Assembly: GCA_033764955.1 (NCBI GenBank)
Contig: JANRIL010000041.1
Coordinates: 58,408-122,407 of the forward strand
From: Cyanobacteriota bacterium
Lineage (GTDB): Bacteria > Cyanobacteriota > Cyanobacteriia > Thermostichales > Thermostichaceae
DNA: 64,000 bases
Direction of reading: 5' to 3'
Position numbers and translations under genes: made by a program
In this document: positions 1 through 15,878 of the stretch, piece after piece
How positions within the stretch are numbered: position 1 is the stretch's first letter
Layout of the letters: every line of letters begins with the position of its first letter
The notes under the pieces: generated by a model
Seen by the model: only the letters and a program-made list of their open reading frames with translations
Told to the model about the DNA's origin: nothing
The model's database searches: none

Positions 1-384
1 AAGATCTAAGTGGCCAATTACTAAATCACGGGTAATTAGTCTTAGTTCTGTAATTATTTTAGATCGAAGCTGAGAGAAATCGTCATTAGGATTATCCTCT
101 ATAATATCCCTCAATCGCGTATTAACAGCACTATAATAATCACCACTATGCCCACCATTGTGAATGGCACCTGGCACACGCTTCGCTACCTCACTATTAG
201 CAGGCAACATCACCCCATTCTCGGCACTGTTGATGCCAATGCCATAATCTCTCAGAATATCCTGGGCTAACTTCGCTGCTGTTGCCGTTGCAGCCACAAT
301 ATGATGAGGTCTTGTGCCACAGGGCATGTCCCCATAAACAGCTTCTAATGCTCTTGCCAGTTGGTCAGAGTTGCTAGTAGAAGA
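1..384 (-). pseudogene. Orphan AHH-family nuclease tip (cassette 4); nuclease domain only, no start at its 5' boundary, runs off the window edge
   Basis: Not in the ORF track. Manual translation after TGA at 385-387: SSTSNSDQLARALEAVYGDMPCGTRPHHIVAA...NSAENGVMLP...HNGGHSGDYYSAVN...DLVIGHLDL. About 91% nt identical (hand count 23/262 mismatches) to 2806-3067. Confidence 0.85.
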
Positions 385-494: not shown

Positions 495-1046
495 CTAAGA
501 GGAGGATGACCAGACTTTATCAAACTTAAACCCTGTTAAATGATGTTGGCGAACCAACTCGACAAATTGATCGCTGACATAAATACTATATCTAAATTGT
601 TTATGAGGAATCCTAAAAATTTGCAAATCACCTATTTTACTTGGAAAGAATGAATGCTTTAGAATCTCTATAGGAGATCCAGAGGGAAGTGTTCTAAATT
701 CGGAGTTTTGTTCATCTAAGCAATCGCAAGATGAGGTAAAGTGATAAGCAAAATATGCGCCGAAACATGGTTGCAGTGGTAAAAGCTCTCCACTCTCTAA
801 TAAAAAATTACCTAAAACCATAATTGCCAAATCACTAAAAACTGGAATAGTTCCATAAATAGTAGCTCGATCACCAGGTATCCTCCCTCTTTGTCTTTTT
901 GATATTGAGAGATGTACTGGATTCCAGATATCTCGAATTGGATTATCCTTATGCCATCCCAGCTCCATTAATTTCTTTGACTGATCAGGATCTAGGCAAT
1001 GAAACATTATCCCATTATTATCGATTACAAGCAGATATATATTCAT
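495..1046 (-). CDS. Imm11/DUF1629-like immunity protein (partner of cassette 3)
   Basis: MNIY start; PVFS..GELLP and IFR..YVSDQFV..LTGFKF..W motifs shared with the two paralogs; begins just after the toxin stop. Confidence 0.8.
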   Translation of the reverse strand: MNIYLLVIDNNGIMFHCLDPDQSKKLMELGWHKDNPIRDIWNPVHLSISKRQRGRIPGDRATIYGTIPVFSDLAIMVLGNFLLESGELLPLQPCFGAYFAYHFTSSCDCLDEQNSEFRTLPSGSPIEILKHSFFPSKIGDLQIFRIPHKQFRYSIYVSDQFVELVRQHHLTGFKFDKVWSSSS

Positions 1047-1050
1047 GGAT

Positions 1051-2001
1051 CTAAAGCCATAGACTTGAATCATGGTTCAGAAGTCTAGTTCTTAATTCAT
1101 TGAGGATTTGAACTATTTCATTGACTGGTTCATTGTTATCTTTAGCAGACTTTAATAATGTATTTACCGTATTGATATACTTGCTTGTATGAATAGTTTG
1201 ATGATACGGCCCAGGAGCATAGGACTCTCTTCCCCCAGGTAAGAAAACTCCATTCACTGCATCATCAATGCTAATTTGATAGCTATCTAATACATCTCGT
1301 GCTTGCTGAGCACTAGGATCATTTTGCTCTACAATATGATGCGCCTGAGTATCACATGGTTGAAAGGTTGGGGGAGGCGCTTCAGGTAAATGGCTCCCTT
1401 GTTGCATATTTTGGGCTAGGCGATTAGTGGGTGATATCCGACATTCCACCTCAAATTCTATAAATTGATTGGCTTGACCGTCAGTTCCAAGAAGACTACT
1501 CCAAACAGTAGCTGAGGATGGAGAAATACTGTTCAGCAGTTGAAAACCCATAGTGGCAGGCGGATAAGTCCCCTCAGAAGCTACCTCAATTTTTATCTTA
1601 CTGAAAACTGCTCTGAGTTGAAGAGGCTGGTTTGCTACGGTTCCCTGATCCCAAAGCAATTGGCTTGATTGGGTAGTTTCGACTTGTGGGTATGGAGGGT
1701 TGATAGTGACTCCATTTTGCTTATTCAGGAGAGGTGTAACAGTGATGCTAACTCTGTCTCCATCATCAGGATAATGTCCATTATCCCACAACTCATTTTC
1801 AAGCAAATATTCATTGGAACTAATGACAATACTGGAGGGAGGAATCTTATCGTCAACTTTGGGATCCGGTGAAGGACTAGGAGAGGGAGAAGGACAAGCG
1901 GAGGGAGTGGGATCTGGGGGAGGATCTGGAGTCGGAGGAGGATCCCGATCTGGAGTCGGAGTTGGACTGCGTGAAGGAGATGGACTGAAATAAGCAGCTC
2001 G
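1051..2001 (-). pseudogene. Orphan toxin cassette 3: Pro-rich linker + pre-toxin domain + AHH nuclease; no start codon at the linker
   Basis: The frame of ORF 1051..1806 stays open to 2001 (RAAYFSPSPS...PSACPSPSPSPSPDPKVDDKIP...). Motifs QAHHIV, NGVFLP, HQTIH. Confidence 0.85.
1840..1902. repeat. 63-bp direct repeat (linker homology arm), identical to 5049-5111
   Basis: aggaatcttatcgtcaactttgggatccggtgaaggactaggagagggagaaggacaagcgga at both positions. Confidence 0.95.
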
Positions 2002-2640
2002 CTACTCATCACTTGACCAAACTAACTTGGGAGCAAACCCTAACAACCCATGCTCTTGGATCCGCTCAACGAATACGTCTGACACATAAAGCAGACCAGC
2101 TTTTGAGTGATGTAAGTCCATTCTGAAAACAACTTGGTTTTTAACTAAATCAGGATGAAACTTGTAATTTATGATATGACCAAGGCTACGATCAGCTAAT
2201 AATCCCTTAGTCCTTAAATAACCATAAGAACCAGGAGGGAGTAATTTAGCTTCTTCAGCAGTATAGTAATAATCAAACTCAGAGTTTTCTGTATCCAGAG
2301 CATCCACAAAGTTAGTTACGTTGTAGCAGTAATAGGTTCCATATTCGGTAATGATAGGTAATAATTCACCGCTTGGAATAAGTAGGTCTTCTAATACGTT
2401 CACTGCGTTCTGACTGAAGGCAATACGCCCCCCACAACCTGGAAAATCTGAAAGAGGGTACTTTTTAGGTTCTTCATCAGTTACCCAATAAGCTTTACAA
2501 GGAATCCATTCATGCTTAATTGGTTTTCTATACAACCATTTTCTCTCTCTGTAGTTAGCAGTAATTCTTCTAGAATCACTTGATTCAAGATTAAGCAAGT
2601 TGTAAGGATTAGCATCCCAATCAAGAATATAGATATTCAT
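2002..2640 (-). CDS. Imm11/DUF1629-like immunity protein (partner of cassette 2)
   Basis: MNIY start; SDFPG, GELLP, VDALD, YVSDVFVERI..LLGF, WSSDE end. Confidence 0.82.
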   Translation of the reverse strand: MNIYILDWDANPYNLLNLESSDSRRITANYRERKWLYRKPIKHEWIPCKAYWVTDEEPKKYPLSDFPGCGGRIAFSQNAVNVLEDLLIPSGELLPIITEYGTYYCYNVTNFVDALDTENSEFDYYYTAEEAKLLPPGSYGYLRTKGLLADRSLGHIINYKFHPDLVKNQVVFRMDLHHSKAGLLYVSDVFVERIQEHGLLGFAPKLVWSSDE

Positions 2641-2675
2641 TTGCTCCTCTTCTGTATCTTTGTTAAAAGTCTGGC

Positions 2676-3638
2676 TTACAATTGCAAATTCCCAAGAACT
2701 AAGTCGTTAGCAATTTTTCTTAGTTCATCAATTATTTTCCCTCTAATTTGCTGATAATTGTTACTGTTAGTAACTGCTTGATCTCTAGTTATTCTCAGTC
2801 GGTCGTTAACAGCACTATAATAAGCACCACTATGTCCACCATTATGAATAGCACCTGGCACACGCTTCGCTACCTCACTATTGGCAGGTAACATCACCCC
2901 ATTCTCAGCACTGTTGATGCCAATGCCATAATCTCTCAGAATATCTTGAGCTTCCTGCGCTGCTCCTGCCGTTGCCGCCACAATATAATGGGGTCTTGTG
3001 CCACAGGGCATGTCCCCATAAACAGCTTCTAATGCCCTTGCCAGTTGGTCGGAGTTACTGCTGGAAGTATAAGATAATCTCCTGCATTCCAAATTAAATT
3101 GATACTTTTGACCCAGCTCTAGCATTGGTAGATTGGCACTCAATGGCTTTAACTGACTATAGCTACTGATGCTTCCTCCTGTTGGGTCATGATTATTAAA
3201 CAAAAGGTTGAGGGTCGCTGCATCAGGATAACTCCCCAAATCAATCGCCTCAATAGTAACAGAATTGTTAAATCCTGGTAAATCAACTGTCTGTAAGTTC
3301 CCTAATGTGATTGTTAGCTCGACAGGAGAGAGAGCAGGTTGAGCTGCAATATCAGAGGTAGAAGGGTTAAAAGAACCCGCAGATTCGATAGTTAGCTTGA
3401 TGCGATCTTGATCCTGGTGATGTCCATTGTCTTCAAAGTTTATACCCAGAGAATAAGTATCATTCTTCAAGACCACTCTTACAGCAGACTGAAAGGCAAA
3501 CGGAGTCGGATCCTTTAGGTCAGGACTAGGGCTAGGAGAGGGCGAAGGACAAGCGGAGGGACTGGGATCCGGGGGAGGATCTGGAGTGGGACTTGGGCTG
3601 AGAGGCGGCGGTGGTGGCGAACTGAATAAGCAGCTCAC
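2676..3638 (-). CDS. Orphan toxin cassette 2: Pro linker + pre-toxin domain + AHH-type nuclease with PHY instead of xHH
   Basis: GTG overlaps the immunity TGA; PSACPSPSPSPSPD linker; NSAENGVMLP and HNGGH motifs. Confidence 0.8.
   Translation of the reverse strand: MSCLFSSPPPPPLSPSPTPDPPPDPSPSACPSPSPSPSPDLKDPTPFAFQSAVRVVLKNDTYSLGINFEDNGHHQDQDRIKLTIESAGSFNPSTSDIAAQPALSPVELTITLGNLQTVDLPGFNNSVTIEAIDLGSYPDAATLNLLFNNHDPTGGSISSYSQLKPLSANLPMLELGQKYQFNLECRRLSYTSSSNSDQLARALEAVYGDMPCGTRPHYIVAATAGAAQEAQDILRDYGIGINSAENGVMLPANSEVAKRVPGAIHNGGHSGAYYSAVNDRLRITRDQAVTNSNNYQQIRGKIIDELRKIANDLVLGNLQL
3532..3587. repeat. Linker homology arm copy in cassette 2
   Basis: ctaggagagggcgaaggacaagcggagggactgggatccgggggaggatctggagt; 3 mismatches to 1877-1932. 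Confidence 0.9.
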
Positions 3639-4189
3639 TCCTCATCACTTGACCAAATCTTGCGAAACAGAAAGCCTGTTAATCGAGCCCGTTCAACAAT
3701 ATTTACAAACTGATCTGTCACACAGGGATAGCTATCATGAGGAATTTGCACAGTCTTAAAAATGGTAAGTTGGGAAACCTTTTGTGGAATAAAATAATAT
3801 TTTTTGATATAATAAACTAAGCCATTTTGATTCTTTGATAGGGAAGACTTTTCTTCATCAAGAGCATCTACAATCGTTGTGGTATTGTAGAGATAGAATG
3901 TTCCATTATCACTTTCTAACGGTAATAACTCTCCATTCATCTCTAGTACTTCTCCTAAAGCTTCTACTGCTTTCTCGGTAAATGCAGGCATCCCACTCAA
4001 TCCTGGAAAATCACTAATTAGTCGAGGGGGTTTGTCAAGATCACTAACGAGCTGGACTGGTACTGGCTCCCAAATTCCTAATACAGGATTTCCAGAGAGA
4101 AATTTACTCACTTTATTGAGTTTCTCCCCACTGCCCACAACTAAACTTCGATATCTACTAACATCGGGTACTAAATGATAAATATTCAT
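3635..4189 (-). CDS. Imm11/DUF1629-like immunity protein of the full-length toxin
   Basis: GAGG SD before MNIY at 4189; SDFPG, GELLP, VDALD, VTDQFV..LTGFLF..WSSDEE. Confidence 0.85.
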   Translation of the reverse strand: MNIYHLVPDVSRYRSLVVGSGEKLNKVSKFLSGNPVLGIWEPVPVQLVSDLDKPPRLISDFPGLSGMPAFTEKAVEALGEVLEMNGELLPLESDNGTFYLYNTTTIVDALDEEKSSLSKNQNGLVYYIKKYYFIPQKVSQLTIFKTVQIPHDSYPCVTDQFVNIVERARLTGFLFRKIWSSDEE

Positions 4190-4199
4190 GCTCTGAACC

Positions 4200-6044
4200 T
4201 CAATGGGGAAATGTTTTTGCAATCAGTTCTTGTCGAATGTTATTCAATACATCTTGAATGTTAAATGTTGTTGCTCCTGGTTGATTTGCTGCTGCTGCTA
4301 ATCTTCTCCTAACTTCCTGAACATAAGTGTTCGTATGAAGCCCTGGAGATTGATTATGAGGTGTGCCAGGAACGGGAATGCTATTATTCTGTGGTAATAC
4401 TACTCCGTTTGAGGCACTGTTGATATGAATATCAAACTGAGTCAGAATATCTTTAGATGCTTGTACCGCTTCACTCATTTCCGGACTACCACTAAAGTTT
4501 CCTTTCGGCACAATATGATGAGCTGCCGTACCACATGGCATCCTTTTCCCATAATATCCAAATGGCTCTGAAAATACATTCCCAGATAAATTCATGTGGA
4601 GTCCTTGCTCCATATTTCTGGCTAGCTTAGCGGCATCATCACTGCCACCAGCCGGAGCACGACGACACTCTACTTCAAAGGTAATGCTTTGGTTAGCACT
4701 CAACAACACACTCCCTTCAAATGTGGTGAGGCTAACCGATTGACTAGATCCAGGGAGAGGAGTTGGATCTTGTTCTACCTTTTCTATCTTAAATTCTAGA
4801 GTGGCTGGCGGATATTCTCCTTCCGATAACCCCTCAATGGTGACTTTGTTCTCAACTGACTGGAGATCAAATACACTTGATTTGTCTTGAGCCGATAAAT
4901 TAATAGAATCTTGCTCACCTGTAGCAGAACTAAGAGTATATCCAGTAGGTTCAACGGTAATAATAACGGAATCACCATCAGAAGTATGATGACCATTATC
5001 GTTAAGCTTCATCGTAAATTGTTGATAGTCATGCACCACAACCTTGACAGGAATCTTATCGTCAACTTTGGGATCCGGTGAAGGACTAGGAGAGGGAGAA
5101 GGACAAGCGGATGGACTGGGATCCGGAGTTGGGGGAGGATCCGGAGTAGGAGTGGGTTGAGGAGTGGGAGTAGGACTCGGTGAAGGGAAAGGATCTGGTT
5201 GGTTATAAATCTCTTCTAGAGTAGCGGCAAAAGCAGCTAGCTGCTCAGGAGCCATATAGTCCTCGACCAAGGCTAACAACTGAGCCGTGGAATAGCCAAC
5301 TAAGCCAAAGACTTCAATAGTTGTGAGAATACAGCCATTGGGATTGGCAAGAGCCAAGCATTGGTTAATAGCAGTTGCAAACGCTTGTGGGGAAACAGAA
5401 CTAGTCTTGCTTTCGCTCTCAGAGAGGTGAAGGCTACTCTGGTCAGGAGGGCAAGGATCCGGAGTGGGAGTTGGGCTGGGAGGTGGCGGTGGTGGCGGTG
5501 GCGGTGGCGGTGGCGGTGGCGGCGGTGGTGGCGGAGTGGGATCTGGAGAGGGGAAAGGAGAAGGACTGGGGGTTGGGCTAGGAGAAGGGGAAGGACTGGG
5601 GGAAGGAATCGGGGAGGGACAAGTATCACGAGTCACTTCAAAGAAGCTTTGAGTTCCATCGGTTCTGCCGTAGCAGGCTTTAGTGCATTGGGAAGTACCC
5701 GTTAAAACATTTGTCCAGCAAAAATCATAGTAATAGCGAGTTGGCTGATCAAAAATCTGCTCTAGGGAATGGAAACGAGCATTATTCCAGCAGCGCGGCC
5801 CATGATAGAGCCAGGTTCCGTTATGGGGATAGTAGTAGTAGCACTGCGCACAGACCTGGCACATGGGAGTGCGAGTGGGGGATCCTGTTGGGGAAGGGCT
5901 GAGAGAGGCTGCTGGGGATGCTGCCACATTGACCGGATCATTGGGATCAACAGCAGGAGCAATCACCGTAGGAGCATGACTAACCGCACAGGCGGCTAAG
6001 CCAAAGCTGAGCAATCCTCCCCAGAGCCAAATCGAGCGAGCCAT
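4200..6044 (-). CDS. Lipoprotein polymorphic toxin with C-terminal AHH (HNH/EndoVII-fold) nuclease
   Basis: Signal peptide with lipobox LAAC (C19); Cys-rich domain; Pro linkers; AAHHIV at 4515-4523, NGVVLP, H..GLHT; immunity gene directly downstream. Confidence 0.85.
   Translation of the reverse strand: MARSIWLWGGLLSFGLAACAVSHAPTVIAPAVDPNDPVNVAASPAASLSPSPTGSPTRTPMCQVCAQCYYYYPHNGTWLYHGPRCWNNARFHSLEQIFDQPTRYYYDFCWTNVLTGTSQCTKACYGRTDGTQSFFEVTRDTCPSPIPSPSPSPSPSPTPSPSPFPSPDPTPPPPPPPPPPPPPPPPPPPSPTPTPDPCPPDQSSLHLSESESKTSSVSPQAFATAINQCLALANPNGCILTTIEVFGLVGYSTAQLLALVEDYMAPEQLAAFAATLEEIYNQPDPFPSPSPTPTPQPTPTPDPPPTPDPSPSACPSPSPSPSPDPKVDDKIPVKVVVHDYQQFTMKLNDNGHHTSDGDSVIITVEPTGYTLSSATGEQDSINLSAQDKSSVFDLQSVENKVTIEGLSEGEYPPATLEFKIEKVEQDPTPLPGSSQSVSLTTFEGSVLLSANQSITFEVECRRAPAGGSDDAAKLARNMEQGLHMNLSGNVFSEPFGYYGKRMPCGTAAHHIVPKGNFSGSPEMSEAVQASKDILTQFDIHINSASNGVVLPQNNSIPVPGTPHNQSPGLHTNTYVQEVRRRLAAAANQPGATTFNIQDVLNNIRQELIAKTFPH
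5049..5111. repeat. Linker homology arm inside the full-length toxin
   Basis: Identical to 1840-1902. Confidence 0.95.
5478..5534 (-). repeat. (CCACCG)n-type tandem repeat encoding 19 consecutive prolines
   Basis: Direct read of the ggtggc/ggcggt tract. Confidence 0.9.
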
Positions 6045-6286
6045 TCAGCCGTACCCTGCCAAACCTTCCACAGGCTACCGGCGATTAAGTAGCTTTCTAA
6101 AAAAAATCATAATTGTTTAATATTATGGATGAACTGAATGAAAGAAAGCGGATCCACCCCTTTCTCTAGTCATAGCTCTGAAGTTTCTGCAACAGGGATC
6201 CGGATCTGGGGGAGGATCCGGAGTTAGGTTGTTAGCTTTAATATGGATGACAGGCTCCCGCACACCATCAACCATCCGCTTAACCC

Positions 6287-6853
6287 TCAATCCGCCCTCT
6301 CCCTCGAGCATTCCTCCGGAAATTGAGCCAGGAGTGTCAAGGCTTCTTCACACCAAGCGATCCAATCGGCCTCATAGCGGATCCCGCGTTTAAGGGTGAG
6401 ATATTGAAATTGATGTTCTAAAGGAACTTGCCGTAAATTAGCAAAGAAAGATTGTTCCACTTGCCGATAGTGATCGAGCTGGTTTTGGTGAATCTTCTGT
6501 CGTCGTTTTAGCTCCTCTTCAATCAAGTTTTTGGGCACCAAATATCCCGCTAAAACTTTCACCAGTAAATCTTCTCGAAGCACCGTAGGTTGCGAAGGTT
6601 CCTTCAACCATTCCTTGAGGTTTTCCTTGCCTAAGGGGGTTATTTCGTAGACTTTTTTGTTGGGGCGATCCGCTTGAATCTCTAGGTGAGAATGAACCCA
6701 ACCCTCCACCTCTAATTTCGCTAATTCTCGATAAATCTGCTGCTGACTGGCCTGCCAATAACAGGCTACATACTGATCAAAATGCTTGGCTAGGTCATAG
6801 CCGCTTAGAGGAGAACGAGCCAGTGTCGCCAAAATGGCGTGGGTAAGTGCCAT
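6287..6853 (-). CDS. PadR-family transcriptional regulator (AphA-like C-terminus)
   Basis: MAL.HAIL..SGYDLAK.F...QQIYREL..L...RPNKKVYEIT..G. Confidence 0.92.
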   Translation of the reverse strand: MALTHAILATLARSPLSGYDLAKHFDQYVACYWQASQQQIYRELAKLEVEGWVHSHLEIQADRPNKKVYEITPLGKENLKEWLKEPSQPTVLREDLLVKVLAGYLVPKNLIEEELKRRQKIHQNQLDHYRQVEQSFFANLRQVPLEHQFQYLTLKRGIRYEADWIAWCEEALTLLAQFPEECSRERAD

Positions 6854-6901
6854 AGGGTGCAAAATATGACCGCAACAACAAACAGTCTGTGGTTTAGCGC
6901 A

Positions 6902-6921
6902 CTATACAACAAGTTGTATAG
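6902..6921. promoter_or_regulatory. Perfect inverted repeat CTATACAAC-AA-GTTGTATAG, probable PadR operator
   Basis: 9-bp arms in the short divergent padR/efflux intergenic region. Confidence 0.7.
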
Positions 6922-6982
6922 GTGCTTTTATGATTATTAACTAATGAGACTACTCTGTTCAGCTTACCTTGCGGAGGCCCCG

Positions 6983-8383
6983 ATGCTCCATCCTTCAGCC
7001 CCACGCCAACCGGCGGATCCCCCTTCGCCCCCTTTGGACAATTTAGGCAAGGGATCCCCTGTGCATCTTTTCTGGTCGAGCGGATCCCGCTTCTGGGGGC
7101 TGGGGCTACTGATCAGTGGCGGGATCCTGTTGGGGGTGTGGCGGCAGCCCTTGGGTTTGGTGCAGGCTGCGGATCCCAAAAATATAGAGGCGGCAGATAG
7201 AGAGGCTGTGGGGATGGCGGTGGCAACCCTCTCGATAGAACCTGTCACCACTCATGCAGTGGAGCGGGTTTATACAGGGGAGGTGATAGCCCGCCGTACC
7301 AGTGATCTGGGGTTTGAGCGAGGGGGAGAACGGGTGAGCGTTTTGGTAGAGGAGGGGGATGTTGTGGAAGCGGGATCCCCCCTGGCTCGTCTAGATACCC
7401 GTAAGTTGCAGGCGGAAAAAGCCCAAGTCATGGCTCAACAAGCCCGTGCCCAAGCTCAGCTAGCGGAATTGCAAGCAGGCCCCCGTCAGGAGGTGATCGC
7501 AGCAGCAGCAGCAGCGGTTCAGGATCTAGCTCAGCAGCGGGATCTTGCGGAGACCAAGCGGTTACGTCGTCAAGAGCTTTATGCCGCCGGAGCGATTTCT
7601 CGCGAACAGTTGGATGAACTGGCTTTTGAAACCCGCGCTTTGGAAGCTCGCTGGCAGGCCGCCTCGCAGGAGTTAACCGAGTTAAAAGCAGGCACTCGCC
7701 CCGAACAAATTGCCGCCCAGTCGGCAGCCGTTCAACAACTGGCGGCCAGTCTGAGCCGTGTGGAGGTAGATATCAGCCAAAGTACCCTGACGGCTCCCTT
7801 TGCTGGACGGATCACCCAGCGGTTTGTGGATGAAGGTACCGTCCTTGGATCGGGCCAGCCTGTCCTGCGATTGGTGGAGGTGGGATCCTTGGAGGCTCGG
7901 ATTGGTGTGCCCAGTCAAGCCACCACCGCCCTCAGCATAGGCTCTACCCAGACCGTGTGGGTGGGGGAGACTGCTTATCCCGCTCAGGTGAGTGCCCTCT
8001 TGCCGGAGGTAAATCCTACCACCCGTACCCTTCCGGTCATTCTCCGGCTACCCGATTCCCTAGGGATCCCTTCCGGTCAAACCGCCCGCCTATCCCTGAC
8101 GGAGACGGTAGAGATGGCTGGCTTTTGGTTGCCAACTACCGCTTTGGTTCCGGGCACCCGTGGACTCTGGTCAGCCTACACCGTAGAGGCAGGCACGGCA
8201 GGCTCACAGGGCGATTTTCAAATCAAGCGACAGGATCTAGAAATTTTGCATACAGAAGGGGAGAAGGTGTTGGTGCGAGGCACCTTACAAGCCGGAGATC
8301 AGGTAGTAGCAACCGGAGTCCAACGGTTAGTACCTGGACAATCGGTGATCCCGCAGCCAACAACATGGCTCAGCTTGCCGTAA
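6983..8383 (+). CDS. RND efflux periplasmic adaptor (membrane fusion protein)
   Basis: GGAGG SD; N-terminal TM; lipoyl-like VEEGDVV..G.PL and APFAG; long coiled coil. Confidence 0.92.
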   Translation: MLHPSAPRQPADPPSPPLDNLGKGSPVHLFWSSGSRFWGLGLLISGGILLGVWRQPLGLVQAADPKNIEAADREAVGMAVATLSIEPVTTHAVERVYTGEVIARRTSDLGFERGGERVSVLVEEGDVVEAGSPLARLDTRKLQAEKAQVMAQQARAQAQLAELQAGPRQEVIAAAAAAVQDLAQQRDLAETKRLRRQELYAAGAISREQLDELAFETRALEARWQAASQELTELKAGTRPEQIAAQSAAVQQLAASLSRVEVDISQSTLTAPFAGRITQRFVDEGTVLGSGQPVLRLVEVGSLEARIGVPSQATTALSIGSTQTVWVGETAYPAQVSALLPEVNPTTRTLPVILRLPDSLGIPSGQTARLSLTETVEMAGFWLPTTALVPGTRGLWSAYTVEAGTAGSQGDFQIKRQDLEILHTEGEKVLVRGTLQAGDQVVATGVQRLVPGQSVIPQPTTWLSLP

Positions 8384-8615
8384 TTCTATCGTGCGACTAT
8401 CAATGCTTGGTTTTATCTAACACAAAATAGGCGAACCAAGAGCCATCAAAAATGCTGTCATCATTGACCAAATAGAAATAGAATCCGGCCACTTAAATTA
8501 GGACTTTGGTCAGACGCAAATCTGTAATTGAAGAGACTAAATTAGAGTCACCTCTAAATAGTTCAAAAAATCAGTTACCCCAACCAAACACTAACCTTGC
8601 TTAGGAGAATGGATC

Positions 8616-9017
8616 ATGGTTGTTGTCTCAGTTACTCGTCTAAAAATTCGCTCTCCACTTTTTTTGATTCCTTTCATGATCTCGGCCATTCAGTCGAGTC
8701 AACAGGCGAAACGGGCTGCTGGAAATCTCTCCGCAGCCACCCGTAAAGATCAGGGTCTCGTCTTTTGGACACTGACCACCTGGGATAGCGAAGCGTCGAT
8801 GCGGCACTACATTCGGGCGGGATCCCATGGGAAGGCGATGGCGAAATTGGCGGAATGGTGTGATGAGGCCAGTCTTGTGCATTGGCTACAGGAGCCGGAT
8901 CAGCCTGTGAACTGGCAGATTGCCTCAGAACGGATGCTCAAGGAGGCGCACTTTAGTCGGGTTAAATATCCTTCTGTTGATCACCAACAACGACGGATCC
9001 CGACCCCTCAGTTTTAA
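8616..9017 (+). CDS. DUF3291-like (dimeric alpha-beta barrel) protein
   Basis: AGGAG SD; SVTRL, FWTLT.W.SE..MR.Y..G.H..AM.KL..WCDEA. Confidence 0.7.
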   Translation: MVVVSVTRLKIRSPLFLIPFMISAIQSSQQAKRAAGNLSAATRKDQGLVFWTLTTWDSEASMRHYIRAGSHGKAMAKLAEWCDEASLVHWLQEPDQPVNWQIASERMLKEAHFSRVKYPSVDHQQRRIPTPQF

Positions 9018-9134
9018 GTTGGCTTGAAGTTTATTGACTAATATTGATCGCTCAATTCTTGGCCAAGACCCGTTATATCCCTACTGGCGTTGTCTTGGTC
9101 ATTGACCCTTTTTTCTCAAACCCTATTCCGAAGT

Positions 9135-12100
9135 ATGTTTACCCTTTTTTATCGCAACCTGCGCTTATTGATTTTAACTCTGATCCTGATTGGGGTTTGG
9201 GGATCCACCGCTTTCTTCAGCTTGCCCCGTTTGGAAGATCCCGAATTGACGGCTCGTAATGCGGTGGTGACAACATTGTTGCCGGGGGCCAGTGCCGAAC
9301 GGGTGGAAACATTACTAACAGACAAAATTGAACAAGCCCTTTTAGAAATGGAAGAAATTGACACGATAGAATCCACCTCCCGCTTGGGAATTTCGATTGT
9401 ACAAATTGAGTTAAACGATGATGTCAATCCTGTCGATAATGCCTGGTCACGCATTCGAGATCAAATTTCCGATACCATACCTTTCCTGCCCCCCTCCGCC
9501 AGCGATCCCGAATTTGAAATCAGCACCGTCGGAGCTAATGCCCTGATTGTCGGCTTAACTTGGGATCCCCCCCATCCCGTCAATAATGCCGTGCTGCGAC
9601 GACAGGCGGAGGCTTTGCAATCGCGCCTGCGCGGGATCCCTGGCACAGCGGAAGTAGAGTTATTTGGGGATCCTGAGGAAGAAATTGGGGTAGAAATCCA
9701 GCCCAGCCAGCTAGCCCGCCTCGGTCTGACCCCCCAGCAGTTGGCGGCACAGATAGCGGCTAGTGATGCCAAAGTCACCGCCGGACAACTGCGTAGCCCC
9801 ACCAGCCAGTTGCTTGTGGAGGTGCAAGGAGAATTAGACTCACTGGAGCGGATCCGGCAAATTCCGATTCGGTTTGGCTCTGGAGAACAATTTGCTCGCC
9901 TGGGCGACATCGCTCAGGTAGAAAAAACGGTACGGGATCCCCTTTCGGAGCTGGCGCTGTTCTCAGGGAAAAGGGGGATTGGGGTGGCAGCCAAAACCGT
10001 ATCGGGAGCACGGGTGGATGACTGGGCGGTAGAGGTTCGGCAACAACTGGAGGATTTTCAGACCCAACTTCCCTCTGGCATCAACGTGCAGGTGATTTTA
10101 GATCAAAGTCGGTATGTTGAAGCCCGTCTTAACTCCGTGATCAGCAACTTGCTGGTGGGGGCACTGCTGGTGATTGGGGTCACGCTGTTCATGATGGGCT
10201 GGCGGTCAGCTCTGATGGTTGGCTCAGCTCTGCCCCTCTCGGCGCTCATGGTGTTTGGCAGCATGAAATGGCTGGGGATCCCGCTCCACCAAATTTCGGT
10301 GACAGGCATCATCATTGCCTTGGGTCTGCTGATTGATAACGCCATCATCATCGTGGATGAAGTACAAACCCGCCTCCAATCCGGCTGGGATCCCGGTCAC
10401 GCGGTTCATCACACAACCCAGCGGATGGCCGTGCCCTTGCTCAGTTCTACCCTGACCACAGTTCTGGCCTTTATGCCGATTGCCCTAGCACCGGGGGGAG
10501 TGGGGGAGTTTACCGGAACCATTGGCGTGACGGTAATTTTAGCCCTGACCAGTTCCCTGATTTTATCGCTGACGGTGATCCCGGCTCTGGTGGGGCACTT
10601 CCAGCCTTCCCAACCCCTTAGCCAGTCAGCTTGGTGGCAGGTGGGGTTCAGCAATGGGGGGCTAACGCGCCTCTATCGCCGATCGATTGCCTACTTTTTG
10701 GCGAGACCTTGGTGGGGAATTGGACTGGGGTTGGTGCTGCCTCTGGCCGGATTTATGGTAGCTCCCCAACTGCCACAACAGTTTTTCCCCCCCGCTGGAC
10801 GAGATCAGTTTTATATCGAGCTGGCTCTGCCCATCCAAACCTCTATCACTGAAACCCAGGCGGTAGTTGCCCAAGCCACCTCGCTTATCACAGCCCACCC
10901 CGCCATTAGCGATGTGGCCTGGTTTATCGGCAATGCTGCTCCTCGCTTCTACTACAACGTGATTGGCGGATCGGAAAATTCGCCCAACTATGCCCAGGCG
11001 CTCGTTCAACTGCACCAGGGATCCCCCAGCCCCACTCTCCTGCAAACCGTTCAAGATGAATTGGATCAGACTTTTCCAGCGGCACAGTTCTTAGTTCGGC
11101 AGTTGGAGCAAGGACCACCCTTTGCCGCCCCCGTTGAAATGCGTCTCTACGGCTCCGATCTGGAGGAGTTGCAACGGTTAGGGGAGCAGGTGCGAGCTGT
11201 CCTGGCTGGGATCCCGGCGGTGATACATACCCGTGCCAGCCTGACGGAAGCCCTACCTACCCTCGGCCTCGCTCTTGACGACGAACAAACCGGACTGGTG
11301 GGATTGAACAAAACCACGATTGCCCAACAGCTCGCAGCCACCCTAGAAGGGGCGGTGGGCGGCTCAATCCTGGAGGGAACAGAGGAGATTCCGGTGCGGG
11401 TAAGGGGATCCCAAGTACAACGGGCGGATTTGGCTGCCATCACCTCCTTAGATTTGGTTGGTGCCCAGCAACAAACTCTTCCTCTCAACAGTTTGGGGCA
11501 GATTCGCCTCACTCCCGATCCGGCTGTGATTGCTCGGCGGCAGGGGGAACGGGTCAACACGATACAAGCCTTCCTCACAGCAGGTATTTTGCCCTCGACG
11601 GTCTTAGCCGAGTTGCAAACCCGCTTGAGCCAAATCAACTGGCTATTGCCCCCCGGCTATCGCTATGAGTTTGGGGGGGAAAGTGATGCGCGGGGAACCT
11701 CCATCGCTAATCTCCTCTCCACGGTGGGGGTGCTGTCGGTGCTGATGGTGGCAACTTTGGTGCTTTCCTTCAATTCCTTTTGGATGGCGGGATTGATCGG
11801 CATTATTGCGGCTTGTGCGATGGGACTGGGCTTGGGGGCACTGTTTCTCTCCGGCTATCCCTTCGGGTTTACGGCAATTTTGGGGACGTTAGGGTTAGTG
11901 GGTCTGGCGATTAACGATTCGATTGTGGTGCTATCGGCGCTGCAGGAGGATCCCGCCGCCCGTCACCGGGATCCCACCGCCATGTTGGGGGTGGTGATGC
12001 ACTGCACCCGCCATGTGATAGCCACCACCGTCACCACCCTAGTTGGCTTCACTCCCCTCCTGTTTGATGCCACAGGATTTTGGCCGCCTCTCGCCATCTG

Positions 12101-12239
12101 CATTGCGGGCGGATTGGGGGGAACAACCCTGATGGCGCTTTACGTCGTTCCCTGCGTTTATCTATTGCTGGGACGCCCTTCGTTGCTGCCACCCGAAGCT
12201 AGCCATTCTCCGCCCACTTATTCCTCCCTCAGCCGTTAG
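9135..12239 (+). CDS. RND efflux permease (AcrB/AcrD/AcrF family)
   Basis: LPRLEDP, LPGASAERVE, ALGLLIDNAI, TT..GF.PL; about 1030 aa, multi-TM. Confidence 0.95.
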   Translation: MFTLFYRNLRLLILTLILIGVWGSTAFFSLPRLEDPELTARNAVVTTLLPGASAERVETLLTDKIEQALLEMEEIDTIESTSRLGISIVQIELNDDVNPVDNAWSRIRDQISDTIPFLPPSASDPEFEISTVGANALIVGLTWDPPHPVNNAVLRRQAEALQSRLRGIPGTAEVELFGDPEEEIGVEIQPSQLARLGLTPQQLAAQIAASDAKVTAGQLRSPTSQLLVEVQGELDSLERIRQIPIRFGSGEQFARLGDIAQVEKTVRDPLSELALFSGKRGIGVAAKTVSGARVDDWAVEVRQQLEDFQTQLPSGINVQVILDQSRYVEARLNSVISNLLVGALLVIGVTLFMMGWRSALMVGSALPLSALMVFGSMKWLGIPLHQISVTGIIIALGLLIDNAIIIVDEVQTRLQSGWDPGHAVHHTTQRMAVPLLSSTLTTVLAFMPIALAPGGVGEFTGTIGVTVILALTSSLILSLTVIPALVGHFQPSQPLSQSAWWQVGFSNGGLTRLYRRSIAYFLARPWWGIGLGLVLPLAGFMVAPQLPQQFFPPAGRDQFYIELALPIQTSITETQAVVAQATSLITAHPAISDVAWFIGNAAPRFYYNVIGGSENSPNYAQALVQLHQGSPSPTLLQTVQDELDQTFPAAQFLVRQLEQGPPFAAPVEMRLYGSDLEELQRLGEQVRAVLAGIPAVIHTRASLTEALPTLGLALDDEQTGLVGLNKTTIAQQLAATLEGAVGGSILEGTEEIPVRVRGSQVQRADLAAITSLDLVGAQQQTLPLNSLGQIRLTPDPAVIARRQGERVNTIQAFLTAGILPSTVLAELQTRLSQINWLLPPGYRYEFGGESDARGTSIANLLSTVGVLSVLMVATLVLSFNSFWMAGLIGIIAACAMGLGLGALFLSGYPFGFTAILGTLGLVGLAINDSIVVLSALQEDPAARHRDPTAMLGVVMHCTRHVIATTVTTLVGFTPLLFDATGFWPPLAICIAGGLGGTTLMALYVVPCVYLLLGRPSLLPPEASHSPPTYSSLSR

Positions 12240-12715
12240 GTGCTTTTGAATTGTGAACTTGAGACGAGACTTTTCCGTGCCAATAAAGAAGCAATAAATG
12301 GCTAGGGAAAATACAGAGAAACTCGATCGGGAGGGATCGATTACTGGTATTCATACGTCCGCTGTTGTTGAGTAGTGCATCAACCCGTTGTCCATAAATC
12401 CCGTGCAATTACGCTCCTCAATTGAGGGTTTCTCCCCGATACTAAGAGCGATACATATTACTCTAAAAAAGGTTATTATGGGTATCGCATCCCAGGCTCA
12501 GTTGCTCGCACGGATGTTAGGGTCAGCATTTAATCTGGGAGATCTCTCCGAATTACGGCTCCATTTTCAGGATGGTCAAGCAGTGGAGTGGGTTGCTTCC
12601 GGCAAGCAGAAGCTTTCCTCCGGTCAGTCTGAGCCATCCCCAGCCAATCGAGCCAGGTAGGATTCCTCTTGGGCTGCATGACTGTCTTACCGCATCTCAC
12701 CCACTAGAGCTGGTT

Positions 12716-14497
12716 ATGAATCTCGAGAGCCGATTAGGGATCCCAGAGCCGTTGCGGAAAATGGAGCGACCCAAAACGGAGATCAGCCTACGAGAACTAG
12801 ACGACAACCAGTTACGGGGCAGCTTAGGTAGCCTGGTTTTGAACAAAGCCACCTGGAGTCACTTCAGTCTTAATGAAACCAGCCGCTTGTTGCGACCTCT
12901 GCAAATCTCACCGGAATTAACCGGAACCACCATTCTCACCCAAGGAGCCACGGCAGAAATCACCTACAAATTCCCTTTGAATGGGGGACGGATCGGCACG
13001 ATGACGGGCATGATTTCCATCGAAGACTTTCGTGGAGATCGGCTAGGGGATATTTATCAGCAACTCAATATTCGACAAATTATTGATGGCTTTACCCAAA
13101 CCATTGTCATTCAAATCATTGATCATCTCAGACCCATTTTTGCTAGAGAAAATGATGCTTTGCTTTGGCAGGAATCTGTCATCTTTCTTCCCAAAGATAT
13201 CAGACAACATGAGTTCCTGATTCGGGGGCTGCGACCGGAGGGGATCCCCAGAAGTTTTGCCCCCCATTTAGAAAGTATTTATCGCTTGATCATCTCAGTT
13301 TGTCCGATCTTTCCTAATGTTGCGTTTCAGCTTTGTTTGCGTACCTATTTAGAATACAACGCTATCCCCAATCAAGAATTACTAGCTCTCCTACTCAGTA
13401 AATATTTTTATACCGTTTTTCGTTTGCAAGGATTGCACCAAGAGTCCTCCATTTATGTGGGTTCGGCTCTGCTGGGATCCCCGACTTCCCAGTCCCGTTT
13501 ACGCACACTTTCGGGTTTGATGACCATCGATAATGATAGCGAGGCTACCCTTCTAGATGGAGGAGGAATTGGTCGAGGGGGGGGCGGCAGCTATTTTTCG
13601 GGAGAGCAGGAATTTAGCGAACAGGGAGAACTGATCACTGCTGAAGAATTTGCCCGTCTTCGTCAAGATGCCCAACAGGCGCGTAGTCAGGCGGAAGAAG
13701 CAACCCAGTTAGTGGCACGTTACCAAGAAGAAGAAAAGCAGGAACTTCTCAAGCGGTTAAGCGATCCCGATCGCTTTTTAGCGTTTAGTCTCAACCAATT
13801 TTTTGATGATATTTTTACCAACATGCCCCAAGGAATCCGCTCCGAGTCGGGCGTAGTTTGGATTCCAAAAACATCTTTGCTTGATGAACTCAAACGGGAG
13901 GAATTAACCCAGTATCTGCGACGGGTGACCAGCGAAAATTATCTTTTTCGCGTCACTTCTGCTGAGGCTCGCATTATTGGCTATTGGCGAACCCTGGCAG
14001 AACCTTTTTACAACCAGTGGGTTCTCAATCAATATAAACAACTTCAGGACTATAATATCAAGCTGGAAAGTGTCAGTATCAAGATGATTTCACGGGAACG
14101 TTTTGTGGAGGAGGTGGAGCTACGCTTTGCCTCACGACACATGGAGATCGTTAATCAGAACCTCAGTAAAATTGCCTCTGTTGTTGTAGAAAAATTGGCT
14201 CAAAGGGTGGCGATCAATACTTCTCAGCAAAGCTTTCAGGCGATGCGAGCCAAACTCAACAATGTGCTGGATATGGAAATTTCCCGCAGTGATGTGAAAG
14301 AAGCGAAAAAGCTGATTGATATCTTTGAAGAAGTCTTTATGGGCAAAAAGGAACAGCACCGATCTCCTTATCCGGTGGGAACCATTTTGGAGGTCTATCG
14401 AGATTTACGTGGTCGCTACAAAGATGGCCGCACTTTAGTGGGCATGGAAATTTTATCGCAAATTTATCAGGAATATATGGCCAAAAGTCAGAGCTAG
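12716..14497 (+). CDS. Hypothetical protein with central Gly-rich hinge and coiled coil (start may be 12572)
   Basis: Long stop-free ORF with globular-like composition; no family recognised. Confidence 0.75.
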   Translation: MNLESRLGIPEPLRKMERPKTEISLRELDDNQLRGSLGSLVLNKATWSHFSLNETSRLLRPLQISPELTGTTILTQGATAEITYKFPLNGGRIGTMTGMISIEDFRGDRLGDIYQQLNIRQIIDGFTQTIVIQIIDHLRPIFARENDALLWQESVIFLPKDIRQHEFLIRGLRPEGIPRSFAPHLESIYRLIISVCPIFPNVAFQLCLRTYLEYNAIPNQELLALLLSKYFYTVFRLQGLHQESSIYVGSALLGSPTSQSRLRTLSGLMTIDNDSEATLLDGGGIGRGGGGSYFSGEQEFSEQGELITAEEFARLRQDAQQARSQAEEATQLVARYQEEEKQELLKRLSDPDRFLAFSLNQFFDDIFTNMPQGIRSESGVVWIPKTSLLDELKREELTQYLRRVTSENYLFRVTSAEARIIGYWRTLAEPFYNQWVLNQYKQLQDYNIKLESVSIKMISRERFVEEVELRFASRHMEIVNQNLSKIASVVVEKLAQRVAINTSQQSFQAMRAKLNNVLDMEISRSDVKEAKKLIDIFEEVFMGKKEQHRSPYPVGTILEVYRDLRGRYKDGRTLVGMEILSQIYQEYMAKSQS

Positions 14498-14741
14498 CAA
14501 CCCCTTCCATTCATCTTTATATTCCCTCATCCACCACTCATTCCTACCGCCGAGCCGCGTTAGGGAACAGGATCGATCCCACTTGGGTTCTGGTCGAGCC
14601 ACCAGGTAGCCAAACTATGGGAGCAGAAGAACACAAAACTTTAGATTAAAATCTTAAGGTCAGGTAAAGGTTTATACGCAATCGTTGTCATTCCCCTAAA
14701 AGACTAAGTTAACCTCAATAGATACTTTGGGAGATAGGGGA

Positions 14742-15878
14742 ATGGGTAATTGGCGTTGGTGGCAACTACTGGGTTGGGTAGGGTTGGGAATGTTGGCGAG
14801 CTTGGGGGGGGTATGGTCGGATCCCCTTGCTGCTCAGGGCTACGCTCCCCCTTTTTTGCTCAGCCTGCGGCAGCAACCGACGGATTTTTCCCAATACTCC
14901 CTGGGATCCCCGTTTCAGACCCAGCGAGTTGTCATTCCTCCCCAGTTTGATAAGGCCAGAGGATTTTCAGAAGGGTTGGCGGCGGTCAACATCGACGGGC
15001 AATGGGGCTTTATCAATCGGGTGGGCGATAGAGTCATCCCCGCCACCTATGATTTCGTCTTGGACTTTTCGCAGGGGAAGGCGGCGGTTAGACGAGGAGA
15101 TCTGTGGGGCTACATCAACCCCCAAGGCCAAGAAGTGATCCCCTTGCGTTATCAACAGGCGGGGCGATTCTCGGAAGGGTTAGCGGCTATTCGCATCAAT
15201 AATCGAGCGGGTTATATCAACCTGCAAGGGCAAATGGTGATTGCCCCCCGTTTCGGAGTTGCCCAAGAATTTTCGCAGGGGTTGGGGTTGGTGCGTATCA
15301 AAAGAAAATGGGGCTATGTAGATAAAACGGGATTGCTAGCGATTCAACCTCAATTTGATGGAGGATCTGGTTTTTCGGAAGGGTTAGCGGTGATTCACCA
15401 AAATGGCAAATCGGGTTATATCAATCGTGGTGGGGAGGTGGTGATTCCGGCTATTTATGACGAGGCGCTCAGCTTTACGGAAGGTCTAGGGCTGGTCAAA
15501 ATTGGACAAAAATGGGGATTTGTCGATCCTACTGGTCAATTGGCCATTCAACCCCAATTTGATACAGCCTTTCGCTTTTCGGAGGGGCTGGCTTCCGTTG
15601 AAATGGCAGGCAAATCCTTCTATATTGATCCGCAAGGGGAGGTCGTTTTGAAATCACCCCTGGATTTAGGCTTTGGAGTCGCTCTGAATTTCTCCGAAAA
15701 CTGGGGAGCCATCGGCATTGGTGACAAATGGGGATATATCGATAAGCTGGGTAATTTGGTGATTCCTCCTCAATTTGATCGGGTGTCTTTTTTCTCCGAA
15801 GGGATGGCGGCTGTCAATATCAATAACAAATGGGGATATGTCAGCAAGCGACGGTTTATCCCCGAATTTGACCGTTAA
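14742..15878 (+). CDS. Secreted WG/KWG-repeat protein
   Basis: Signal peptide; about 8-9 repeats of FSEGLA.V...KWG(F/Y)ID..G. Confidence 0.92.
   Translation: MGNWRWWQLLGWVGLGMLASLGGVWSDPLAAQGYAPPFLLSLRQQPTDFSQYSLGSPFQTQRVVIPPQFDKARGFSEGLAAVNIDGQWGFINRVGDRVIPATYDFVLDFSQGKAAVRRGDLWGYINPQGQEVIPLRYQQAGRFSEGLAAIRINNRAGYINLQGQMVIAPRFGVAQEFSQGLGLVRIKRKWGYVDKTGLLAIQPQFDGGSGFSEGLAVIHQNGKSGYINRGGEVVIPAIYDEALSFTEGLGLVKIGQKWGFVDPTGQLAIQPQFDTAFRFSEGLASVEMAGKSFYIDPQGEVVLKSPLDLGFGVALNFSENWGAIGIGDKWGYIDKLGNLVIPPQFDRVSFFSEGMAAVNINNKWGYVSKRRFIPEFDR

Follow-up and report, generated by a model that had tools for sequence, protein, structure and literature searches.

The window, a 64,000-nucleotide stretch of a 3.8-Mb draft genome (48 contigs, 89% complete, contamination 0.23%), carries on its minus strand a polymorphic toxin array in which a gene for a 614-amino-acid lipoprotein and its Imm11 gene are followed by a series of orphan cassettes. 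We read this array, at a probability of about 70%, as a Thermostichus-type polymorphic toxin locus that combines a lipoprotein carrier with an AHH DNase tip, and in which the 3′ end of a proline-rich linker is the site of tip exchange among cassettes. In the proposed arrangement, a single gene would supply the exportable carrier, ending in the AHH DNase tip and paired with Imm11. The downstream cassettes, devoid of a signal peptide, each comprise the 3′ part of the proline-rich linker, a beta-sandwich pre-toxin domain, and AHH, together with an Imm11 gene of their own. Homologous recombination or gene conversion would keep the 3′ end of the linker identical among cassettes that are otherwise 45% identical, and this end would be the place at which tips pass between them. 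Two of the orphans, A2 and A3, are complete linker, pre-toxin, and AHH cassettes with Imm11, and a third, A4, is armless and truncated. The features of this array (locus A), in window coordinates, are:

6072..6201, minus strand: 130-nt upstream element, directly 5′ of the full-length toxin gene (from sequence copies)
4200..6044, minus strand: full-length toxin gene, 614 aa (ORF; Pfam AHH PF14412, E 6.9e-13, residues 503-607)
5988..6044, minus strand: putative signal peptide with lipobox L-A-A-C at its end (MARSIWLWGGLLSFGLAAC; read from the translation)
5441..5619, minus strand: proline-rich linker 1 (PSPS..., poly-Pro, SPTPTPDPC; repeat family D2)
5049..5199, minus strand: proline-rich linker 2, whose final 63 nt (5049-5111) are the exact arm (repeat family D4)
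4203..5048, minus strand: tip type 1, beta-sandwich pre-toxin (about 4659-5048) and AHH nuclease (about 4203-4658) (alignment, AlphaFold model)
3635..4189, minus strand: immA1, immunity gene (Imm11, Pfam PF07791, E 8.1e-10)
2676..3638, minus strand: orphan cassette A2, tip type 2, arm core 3528-3602 (ORF, Pfam, alignment)
2002..2640, minus strand: immA2, immunity gene (Imm11, PF07791, E 1.1e-8)
1051..1998, minus strand: orphan cassette A3, tip type 3, exact arm 1840-1902 (ORF, Pfam)
495..1046, minus strand: immA3, immunity gene (Imm11, PF07791, E 3.7e-9)
1..383, minus strand: truncated orphan A4, reduced to the AHH domain and lacking the linker arm (90% identity between 110-383 and 2794-3067, family D1)

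The full-length protein is assembled, in order, from the signal peptide and lipobox, a Cys-rich N-terminal domain, linker 1, a mid domain, linker 2, the beta-sandwich pre-toxin, and AHH. Its putative lipobox, ...GLAAC at residues 15-19, was read from the sequence by eye, LAAC fitting the lipobox consensus. Residues 1-182 occur once in the genome, in this gene. A2 opens with a GTG overlapping the stop codon of immA1, and A3 has no ATG, GTG, or TTG between the upstream stop codon and its arm. The Imm11 gene belonging to A4 lies just beyond the window edge (C4:57741-58382).

Across the genome, all seven toxin ORFs exceed the Pfam cut-off for AHH PF14412 (45.5-58 bits vs. 22.3), nine ORFs exceed that for Imm11 PF07791 (28.2-39.8 bits vs. 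22.1), and every one of them resides either in locus A or in a second locus, B, on contig C44. Directly 3′ of each of the seven AHH ORFs sits an Imm11 ORF, a pairing read from gene order. A tenth Imm11-like ORF (C44:110445-110978) is 30-40% identical to the others and has no Pfam hit at E ≤ 0.001. The namesake motif reads AHH in the full-length gene and A3, THH in B3, PHH in B2 and A4, and PHY in A2, the one copy of seven that lacks the second histidine. In the AlphaFold model of the tip (mean pLDDT 67.8), strands run across module residues 9-136 with pLDDT of about 70-88; a Foldseek search of the PDB with this model turned up generic beta-sandwiches and no match at E ≤ 0.001.

The element on which tip exchange would hinge is the exact arm. 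The preliminary description had reported that 1840-1902 equals 5049-5111, and the identity is real: 63/63 bases agree between copies that share strand and reading frame, and the match extends by 0 bases at either end. Each copy is in frame with its own toxin, as had been asserted, and encodes SACPSPSPSPSPDPKVDDKIP. When the match and mismatch columns in the codon alignment of the two modules (879 nt; 54.4% nucleotide and 44.7% amino acid identity) were shuffled, a run of 63 was reached in 0 of 5000 permutations, the longest run averaging 10.3 and never exceeding 23. Five copies of the 63-mer exist in the genome, two in the window and three in locus B, and all five are identical although the loci are 88% identical overall. 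The domains downstream are diverged, as first described, with 37-45% amino acid identity between whole modules, yet still homologous. The lipoprotein N-terminus belongs to one gene, whereas the tips fall into three types, whose AHH domains are 32-37% identical from one type to another. The picture of a low-complexity proline linker suits about half of the exact arm; its 3′ third encodes DPKVDDKIP and does not conform.

Cassette A2 is a different matter. Its arm at 3532-3587 had been called near-identical, which overstates the case, as an ungapped comparison over that interval yields 43 matches in 56 bases. The true shared core spans 45 nt with 42 matches (CCGGATCCCAGTCC.TCCGCTTGTCCTTC.CCCTCTCCTAG.CCT); it is in frame and stops short of the DPKVDDKIP part. 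The full-length gene and A2 agree without a mismatch over at most 23 nt, a length reached by 1 of 5000 permutations. The A2 arm is a chimera of linkers 1 and 2: positions 3619-3576 match linker 1 (5497-5454) at 40/44 bases, and 77 of 85 bases equal the start of B1 before the sequence changes to linker 2 at a common ACTCCGGATCCT. The 3′ end of linker 1 corresponds to the 5′ start of both A2 and the long orphan B1.

Locus B is 88% identical to locus A and holds no exportable toxin gene; the upstream element directly adjoins its first immunity gene. It is an immunity-rich island that also carries a SUKH/TPR gene, and it contains diverged copies, 74-91% identical, of every immunity type. Cassettes follow the order 1, 2, 3 in both loci, and in each of them the tip joined to the carrier-homologous sequence is tip 1. 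On contig C44 lies a fossil cassette (C44:112700-113135) whose two sides have different affinities. Of the 128 informative sites to the left, 112 agree with the B2 context, 7 with B3, and 9 with neither; of the 49 to the right, 47 agree with B3, 0 with B2, and 2 with neither. The breakpoint interval, C44:112989-113038, coincides to within 50 nt with the arm (the SAC arm), and the fossil is cut off after about 120 nt of tip 3. This is the product to be expected of a crossover between the arms of B2 and B3 that deleted tip 2 with its immunity gene. Comparison of the two loci reveals a similar preference for the linker as a boundary: tracts of 97-100% identity at 5138-4840 and 1949-1230 both start in the linker, amid flanks of 67-85%, and dS between loci is 0.023 in pre-toxin 3 vs. 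0.77 in the neighboring immunity gene. These are interlocus conversion tracts that start in the arm. The fossil, the conversion tracts, and the chimeric A2 arm show, in three ways, recombination at the linker between cassettes, and because the genome preserves a fossil recombinant, use of the arm is documented beyond assumption.

Could such junctions have been manufactured by assembly, in a draft or metagenome-derived genome whose repeats were collapsed or joined as chimeras, or through two strains binned together? The genome is indeed an incomplete draft in many contigs, and the joins are known from assembly alone. However, the loci are embedded in contigs of 122 kb and 161 kb and are flanked by different sequences, contamination is low, the reading frame is kept in all five arm copies, and the fossil copy has two private variants and ends at a non-repeated junction, all of which make this explanation very improbable. 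Equally hard to credit is a role for the 63-nt identity at some other nucleotide level, either as a signal that acts on the downstream tip through RNA or translation or as a by-product of GGGATCCC-driven repair bias. The genome is strikingly enriched in GGGATCCC (4915 copies vs. about 65 expected) and in GGATCC (11709 vs. about 983), and the linkers are rich in CCGGATCC, which encodes P-D-P. But GGATCC accounts for only 6 of the 63 bases, a promoter and terminator scan brought no signal to the fore (18 promoter-like sites vs. 13.1 ± 3.4 in shuffled sequences), and it is at the arm that the recombinant has its breakpoint and the conversion tracts begin.

Exchange among cassettes at the linker leads to the question of the full-length gene. 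The preliminary description had proposed that a crossover between its arm and an orphan arm would delete the intervening pair and fuse a new tip in frame to the carrier. The prerequisites are present, namely direct repeats that agree in strand and frame, and the fossil provides an orphan-orphan precedent, but a switch of the full-length gene itself is seen in neither locus. Recombination of 5049-5111 with 1840-1902 would remove 3209 bp and is predicted to create an in-frame chimera of carrier residues 1-332 and 262 residues of tip 3. Such a simple deletion would also remove immA1 and immA2, a cost absent from the original proposal. The same arm may let the full-length gene acquire an orphan tip, either through deletion or, at less risk, through conversion or following a duplication, with toxin-less locus B perhaps acting as a source of spare immunity genes and donor cassettes, and the toxin itself presumably acting between adjacent cells. 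In Salmonella, main and orphan rhs genes recombine across 522 bp at 95% identity, after a duplication such that immunity is retained, according to the available part of that report (PMC3967940). By that measure a 63-nt arm is short, and the exact run in A2 is shorter still. Furthermore, A4 lacks an arm and starts where the pre-toxin domain meets AHH, which makes for at least one breakpoint without any relation to the linker. The PHY motif of A2, the armless A4, and the truncated fossil are compatible with decay as much as with use.

These signs of decay invite a contrary account, in which DNA from outside strains replaced the tips, each displaced tip and its immunity gene were pushed downstream and kept for immunity only, and the arms are leftovers homogenized by incidental conversion, the orphans never being reused. 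The missing start codon ahead of the A3 arm, the PHY of A2, the truncation of A4 and of the C44 fragment, and the immunity-rich, toxin-less character of locus B all accord with this account, and displacement arrays have been described for the Vibrio T6SS, in the portion of the source available (PMC5361080). Selection speaks otherwise. Between orphan copies (A2-B2 and A3-B3), toxin dN/dS is 0.22-0.32, no higher, on our reading, than the 0.13-0.27 of the immunity genes; for the full-length gene against B1 it is 0.11-0.18. Orphan toxins are under purifying selection. Five orphan modules also retain open frames of 315-435 aa, and five arms are perfectly identical, observations that render purely passive retention unlikely and sit more comfortably with exchange at the linker.

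Orphan toxin cassettes with homology arms are textbook features of proteobacterial CDI and Rhs systems. Recombination between main gene and orphan is experimental in Salmonella (PMC3967940) and proposed for CDI (PMC7662968), where orphans keep sequence upstream of VENN (PMC7662968), as far as the available parts of both papers go. In that same partial light, the present array shares with Rhs and CDI a full-length exported toxin followed by tip and immunity cassettes without start codon or signal peptide, each of which retains a piece of upstream coding sequence as a homology arm. The differences are equally plain. The carrier here is a 614-aa lipoprotein with AHH as its sole Pfam domain, and the swapped unit takes in the beta-sandwich pre-toxin domain together with the toxin. 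The arm is the end of a proline-rich interdomain linker, exact over 63 nt, compared with a folded core of 522 bp or a VENN/pre-toxin region in the accessible text of those accounts. Membership in either class was rejected: Pfam found no TPS/FHA filament, no RHS family at E ≤ 0.01, and no other domain in the 614-aa protein, whose sequence has no VENN; RHS/YD repeats and a PxxxxDPxGL boundary are the hallmarks of Rhs.

Also comparable in architecture are the AHH/Imm11 lipoprotein loci of Myxococcus SitA5, delivered by outer membrane exchange (PMC12077181; PMC8546572, the latter available in part). Like SitA (PMC12077181), the present system has a lipoprotein signal, a nontoxic N-terminal part, a modular C-terminal AHH, a downstream Imm11, and several paralogous loci per genome. 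Unlike SitA, it has a cyanobacterial host, tandem orphan cassettes with arms (the word "orphan" is absent from the available part of PMC8546572), and an N-terminal carrier for which protein, metagenome, and ESM Atlas searches found no sequence relative. A family-specific escort domain and TraA/TraB-dependent delivery are the hallmarks of SitA; database searches with residues 1-150, which returned no relative, gave no sign of an escort domain from any of the six SitA families. One could imagine a contact-dependent lipoprotein toxin of a mat-forming cyanobacterium that is switched through two loci, with locus A expressing the carrier, the arm admitting any silent tip, and locus B serving as immunity back-up and donor library that spares the cell from its siblings during the switch, delivery following a route undescribed in cyanobacteria, possibly a Myxococcus-like outer-membrane lipoprotein transfer. 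As a whole, this elaborate scenario is distinctly doubtful.

The broadest framework is that of Zhang et al. (2012; PMC3482391), which, in the part available, lists Imm11 among homogeneous polyimmunity families, paired with Tox-AHH and with cyanobacteria included. In its sense the array would count as a polymorphic toxin system, having an apparent trafficking N-terminus with variable tips, and downstream immunity genes. Set against the polyimmunity loci in the same part of that survey (PMC3482391), locus B is similar in that Imm11 genes follow one another alongside a SUKH/TPR gene and an exportable toxin is missing, but differs in that it interleaves immunity genes with intact, signal-less, arm-bearing toxin modules, and in that an upstream element of a toxin gene directly adjoins its first immunity gene. 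Literature searches returned no paper on polymorphic toxins in this thermophilic-type cyanobacterial lineage. The known design is extended here to a small lipoprotein carrier, to a cyanobacterial host, and to an arm shrunk to roughly the final 60 bases of a flexible proline-rich linker. With three tip types, two loci, and one carrier, the system is compact enough that it could be used to probe the minimal arm length and the retention of immunity during switching, as well as how a cyanobacterial lipoprotein nuclease gets into the cytoplasm of a neighbor.

Relatives of the carrier proved scarce. A word-indexed protein search with carrier residues 1-150 gave 0 hits, and the ESM Atlas offered no usable match to the N-terminal domain. 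An exhaustive HMMER search with residues 1-300 produced 1012 hits at E ≤ 0.001, none of them at E ≤ 1e-30, and the best 150 of the 1012 matched almost entirely to proline-rich residues. One match, P0027, covers residues 12-112 at 28% identity. In metagenomes, a degenerate pattern encoding SPDPKVDDKIP had 0 matches, and a scan with the N-terminal 152 aa found 131 pattern stretches, 0 of which were confirmed. A genome contig scan for the same carrier or arm gave four loci. Among 41 related genomes, no carrier match outside G000 begins before residue 95, and the pre-toxin/AHH module occurs only in G017, G010 (in two places), G003, and, weakly, G005. When the pre-toxin domain was the sole query, only B1 of the genome under study was recovered. 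The relative in G017 likewise begins with a lipobox-like LYAC.

As for the 130-nt upstream element, Rfam yielded only a sub-threshold RgsA fragment (21 bits vs. a gathering score of 88). The 127-nt direct repeats around the toxin pair of G017 were considered as its kin and rejected as unrelated. Of its three copies (92-100% identity), one is at 6072-6201, another adjoins the immunity gene that comes first in locus B, and the third is at C44:214-338; a partial 24-nt copy (96%) lies at C4:57661-57684, 3′ of the final immunity gene in locus A.

The 63-nt arm that closes the proline-rich linker 2 occurs at 1840-1902 and again at 5049-5111, identical at 63/63 bases, as the preliminary description had stated; the identity extends no further on either side. 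Both copies encode SACPSPSPSPSPDPKVDDKIP, in the frame of the toxin domain 3′ of each, which bears out the claim that the arms are in frame. Elsewhere, the two modules bearing them share just 54% DNA and 45% protein identity, and 5000 permutations of the aligned columns gave a longest identical run of 10.3 on average and 23 at maximum, against the 63 observed. The genome carries five identical copies of the 63-mer: in the full-length toxin gene, in cassette A3, in orphans B1 and B3 of a paralogous array on another contig (locus B, C44), and in a C44 fragment. The arm of cassette 2 had also been called near-identical, but is weaker than that: over 3587-3532, 43/56 bases match without gaps, and the common core (42/45 bases) stops short of the DPKVDDKIP-coding part.

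All genes of the array in the window (locus A) lie on the minus strand:

6044-4200, minus strand: full-length toxin gene (614 aa), followed 3′ by the Imm11 immunity gene immA1 (PF07791)
3638-2676, minus strand: cassette A2, with its Imm11 gene
1998-1051, minus strand: cassette A3, with its Imm11 gene
383-1, minus strand, continuing beyond the window edge: cassette A4, an AHH domain alone

As read from the sequence, the full-length toxin opens with an N-terminal signal peptide closing with LAAC, which we take to be a lipobox from the general consensus. A Cys-rich N-terminal domain follows, then proline-rich linker 1, which includes a poly-Pro run of 18 residues. The mid domain (~85 aa) leads into linker 2, which ends in the arm. 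Behind the arm come a domain of ~130 aa that is all-beta in the AlphaFold model (pLDDT ~70-88) and has no PDB match at E<=0.001, and finally an AHH nuclease domain (PF14412). The carrier N-terminus is found in a single ORF of the genome. Cassettes A2 and A3 have no signal peptide and begin right behind the stop codon of the upstream immunity gene, a junction conserved among cassettes at 94% over 33 nt; A2 has a GTG overlapping that stop codon, and A3 has no ATG, GTG or TTG 5′ of its arm.

The assembly (3.8 Mb in 48 contigs, 89% complete, 0.23% contamination) contains 7 AHH and 9 Imm11 matches above Pfam cut-offs, all within loci A and B. Over window 5498-469, locus B is 88% identical and colinear; it has different flanks and keeps the cassette order 1, 2, 3. 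Codons 1-182 of the toxin gene are missing from it, and in their place a 130-nt element directly adjoins an Imm11 gene. After this gene come B1, a long orphan that starts in linker 1 and continues through the mid domain and linker 2 into tip 1 (pre-toxin domain plus AHH), then B2, B3, an Imm11-like ORF, a SUKH/TPR gene, another Imm11 gene and a truncated cassette fragment. The presence of the Imm11-like ORF and the SUKH/TPR gene (C44:110445-112231; L002:6594-7127 and L005:303-1436) makes this a heterogeneous polyimmunity island. The Imm11-like product (177 aa) is 30-40% identical to Imm11 proteins and has no Pfam match; the SUKH (SMI1/KNR4) and TPR protein has 377 aa.

One trace of recombination at the linker is a fossil at C44:112700-113135. 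On its left side it follows the context of B2, from the tail of a type-1 immunity gene across the junction into the 5′ linker, and matches B2 at 112 of 128 informative sites, B3 at 7 and neither at 9; on the right side, 47/49 sites match B3 and none B2, two being private. The switch falls within C44:112989-113038, where PPPDPSPSACPSPSPS is encoded. In its sequence, the fossil is the product expected of a crossover between a cassette 2 arm and a cassette 3 arm, with tip 2 and its immunity gene lost; a later truncation cut this copy off ~120 nt into tip 3. Loci A and B are moreover mosaic: tracts of 97-100% identity (5138-4840 and 1949-1230) both start in the linker and adjoin stretches of 67-85%, and dS between the loci is 0.023 in pre-toxin domain 3 versus 0.77 in the adjacent immunity gene. 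The A2 arm is chimeric. It matches the beginning of B1, where an immunity gene ends and the 3′ part of linker 1 follows, at 77/85 bases up to ACTCCAGATCCT and is linker 2 from there, a switch that makes it look like a mid-domain deletion between the copies of the 12-mer ACTCCGGATCCT present in linkers 1 and 2, where the chimera junction lies. At the sequence level, cassettes are thus documented to have recombined with one another at the linker; the expressed gene so far is not, and the earlier proposal that the linker serves as the site of tip exchange is to that extent partly supported.

Neither locus of this genome contains a carrier with a tip other than type 1. Carrier relatives were not found in the collections searched (for HMMER, among the best 150 of 1012 matches), nor was the arm-coding pattern in the scanned metagenome contigs. 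A straightforward deletion from arm to arm (5049-5111 to 1840-1902) would cost 3209 bp and, with them, two immunity genes. Salmonella escapes this cost because duplication precedes recombination (PMC3967940). Locus B holds every immunity type, at 74-76% identity to immA1, 91% to immA2 and 82% to immA3. Cross-protection between Myxococcus AHH/Imm11 systems is reported at 46% and 86% identity (PMC12077181), and the locus B copies may protect in the present organism.

Orphan toxin modules compared between their two copies (A2 with B2, A3 with B3) gave dN/dS of 0.22-0.32, the full-length gene against B1 0.11-0.18, and immunity genes 0.13-0.27; by these ratios, the orphans are under selection and not in free decay. 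At the AHH motif, A2 has PHY where its counterparts B2 and A4 have PHH, so A2 may encode an inactive toxin, and may have been retained as such next to its immunity gene (91% conserved). A4 is 90% identical in DNA to the AHH of A2, has no linker, and has its own Imm11 gene just beyond the window edge. With no arm and a start right where the pre-toxin and AHH domains meet, it shows that not every breakpoint lies in the linker. This start, at 383, is near a conserved LA[RQ] motif and preceded by unique sequence (384-494); tips may be exchanged at this point as well, or the cassette may simply have lost its 5′ part.

In mechanism, the locus resembles CDI and Rhs orphan arrays, but it belongs to neither family: RHS and FHA domains are absent, and so is the VENN motif. 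By parts list, the closest systems are the Myxococcus SitA5 lipoprotein AHH/Imm11 loci (PMC12077181), from which it differs in a carrier with no homologue detected in the same searches. A literature search for polymorphic toxins with proline-rich arms, or in hot-spring Synechococcus, returned nothing relevant. The locus is new in its host lineage, in having a lipoprotein as carrier, in an arm that is very short and closes a proline-rich linker, in a swapped unit that takes a beta-sandwich domain along, and in a second locus without an exportable toxin. A small number of other genomes in this family, including a Thermostichus MAG and a Synechococcaceae MAG, also have the pre-toxin, AHH and Imm11 module, in differing contexts: on a different lipoprotein of 535 aa (G017), after a Pro-rich linker in a protein of >1000 aa (G003), and in one genome both after a Pro/Glu-rich linker (G010:C225) and as an orphan (G010:C58).

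The 130-nt element, which matches no Rfam family above threshold, has three copies at 92-100% identity: at 6072-6201, just upstream of the toxin gene and 93% identical to the locus B copy; at C44:104654-104781, adjoining the ATG of the immunity gene; and at C44:214-338, isolated between genes. A 96% identical copy of the element's first 24 nt lies immediately 3′ of the final immunity gene in locus A (C4:57661-57684, on the window's contig), so that a direct repeat encloses locus A. In G017, the one lipoprotein-AHH/Imm11 pair also lies between direct repeats (127 nt, 96% identical; L029:6823-6949 and 9399-9525), whose sequence is unrelated to that of the 130-nt element. Beyond the element, the neighbourhood of the toxin locus (6287-15878) comprises:

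6287-6862, minus strand: PadR/Vir_act_alpha_C regulator
6944-8383: HlyD-type adaptor
9090-12239: AcrB-type RND pump
12572-14497: ORF of 641 aa with no Pfam family
14727-15878: WG_beta_rep protein

Genome-wide, GGGATCCC occurs 4915 times against ~65 expected, and GGATCC 11709 times against ~983. The former is reported as an iterated palindrome (HIP1 derivative) of hot-spring Synechococcus OS-A and OS-B′ (PMC4390886). The P-D-P motifs of the linkers (5049-5199 and 5441-5619) are encoded by CCGGATCC.
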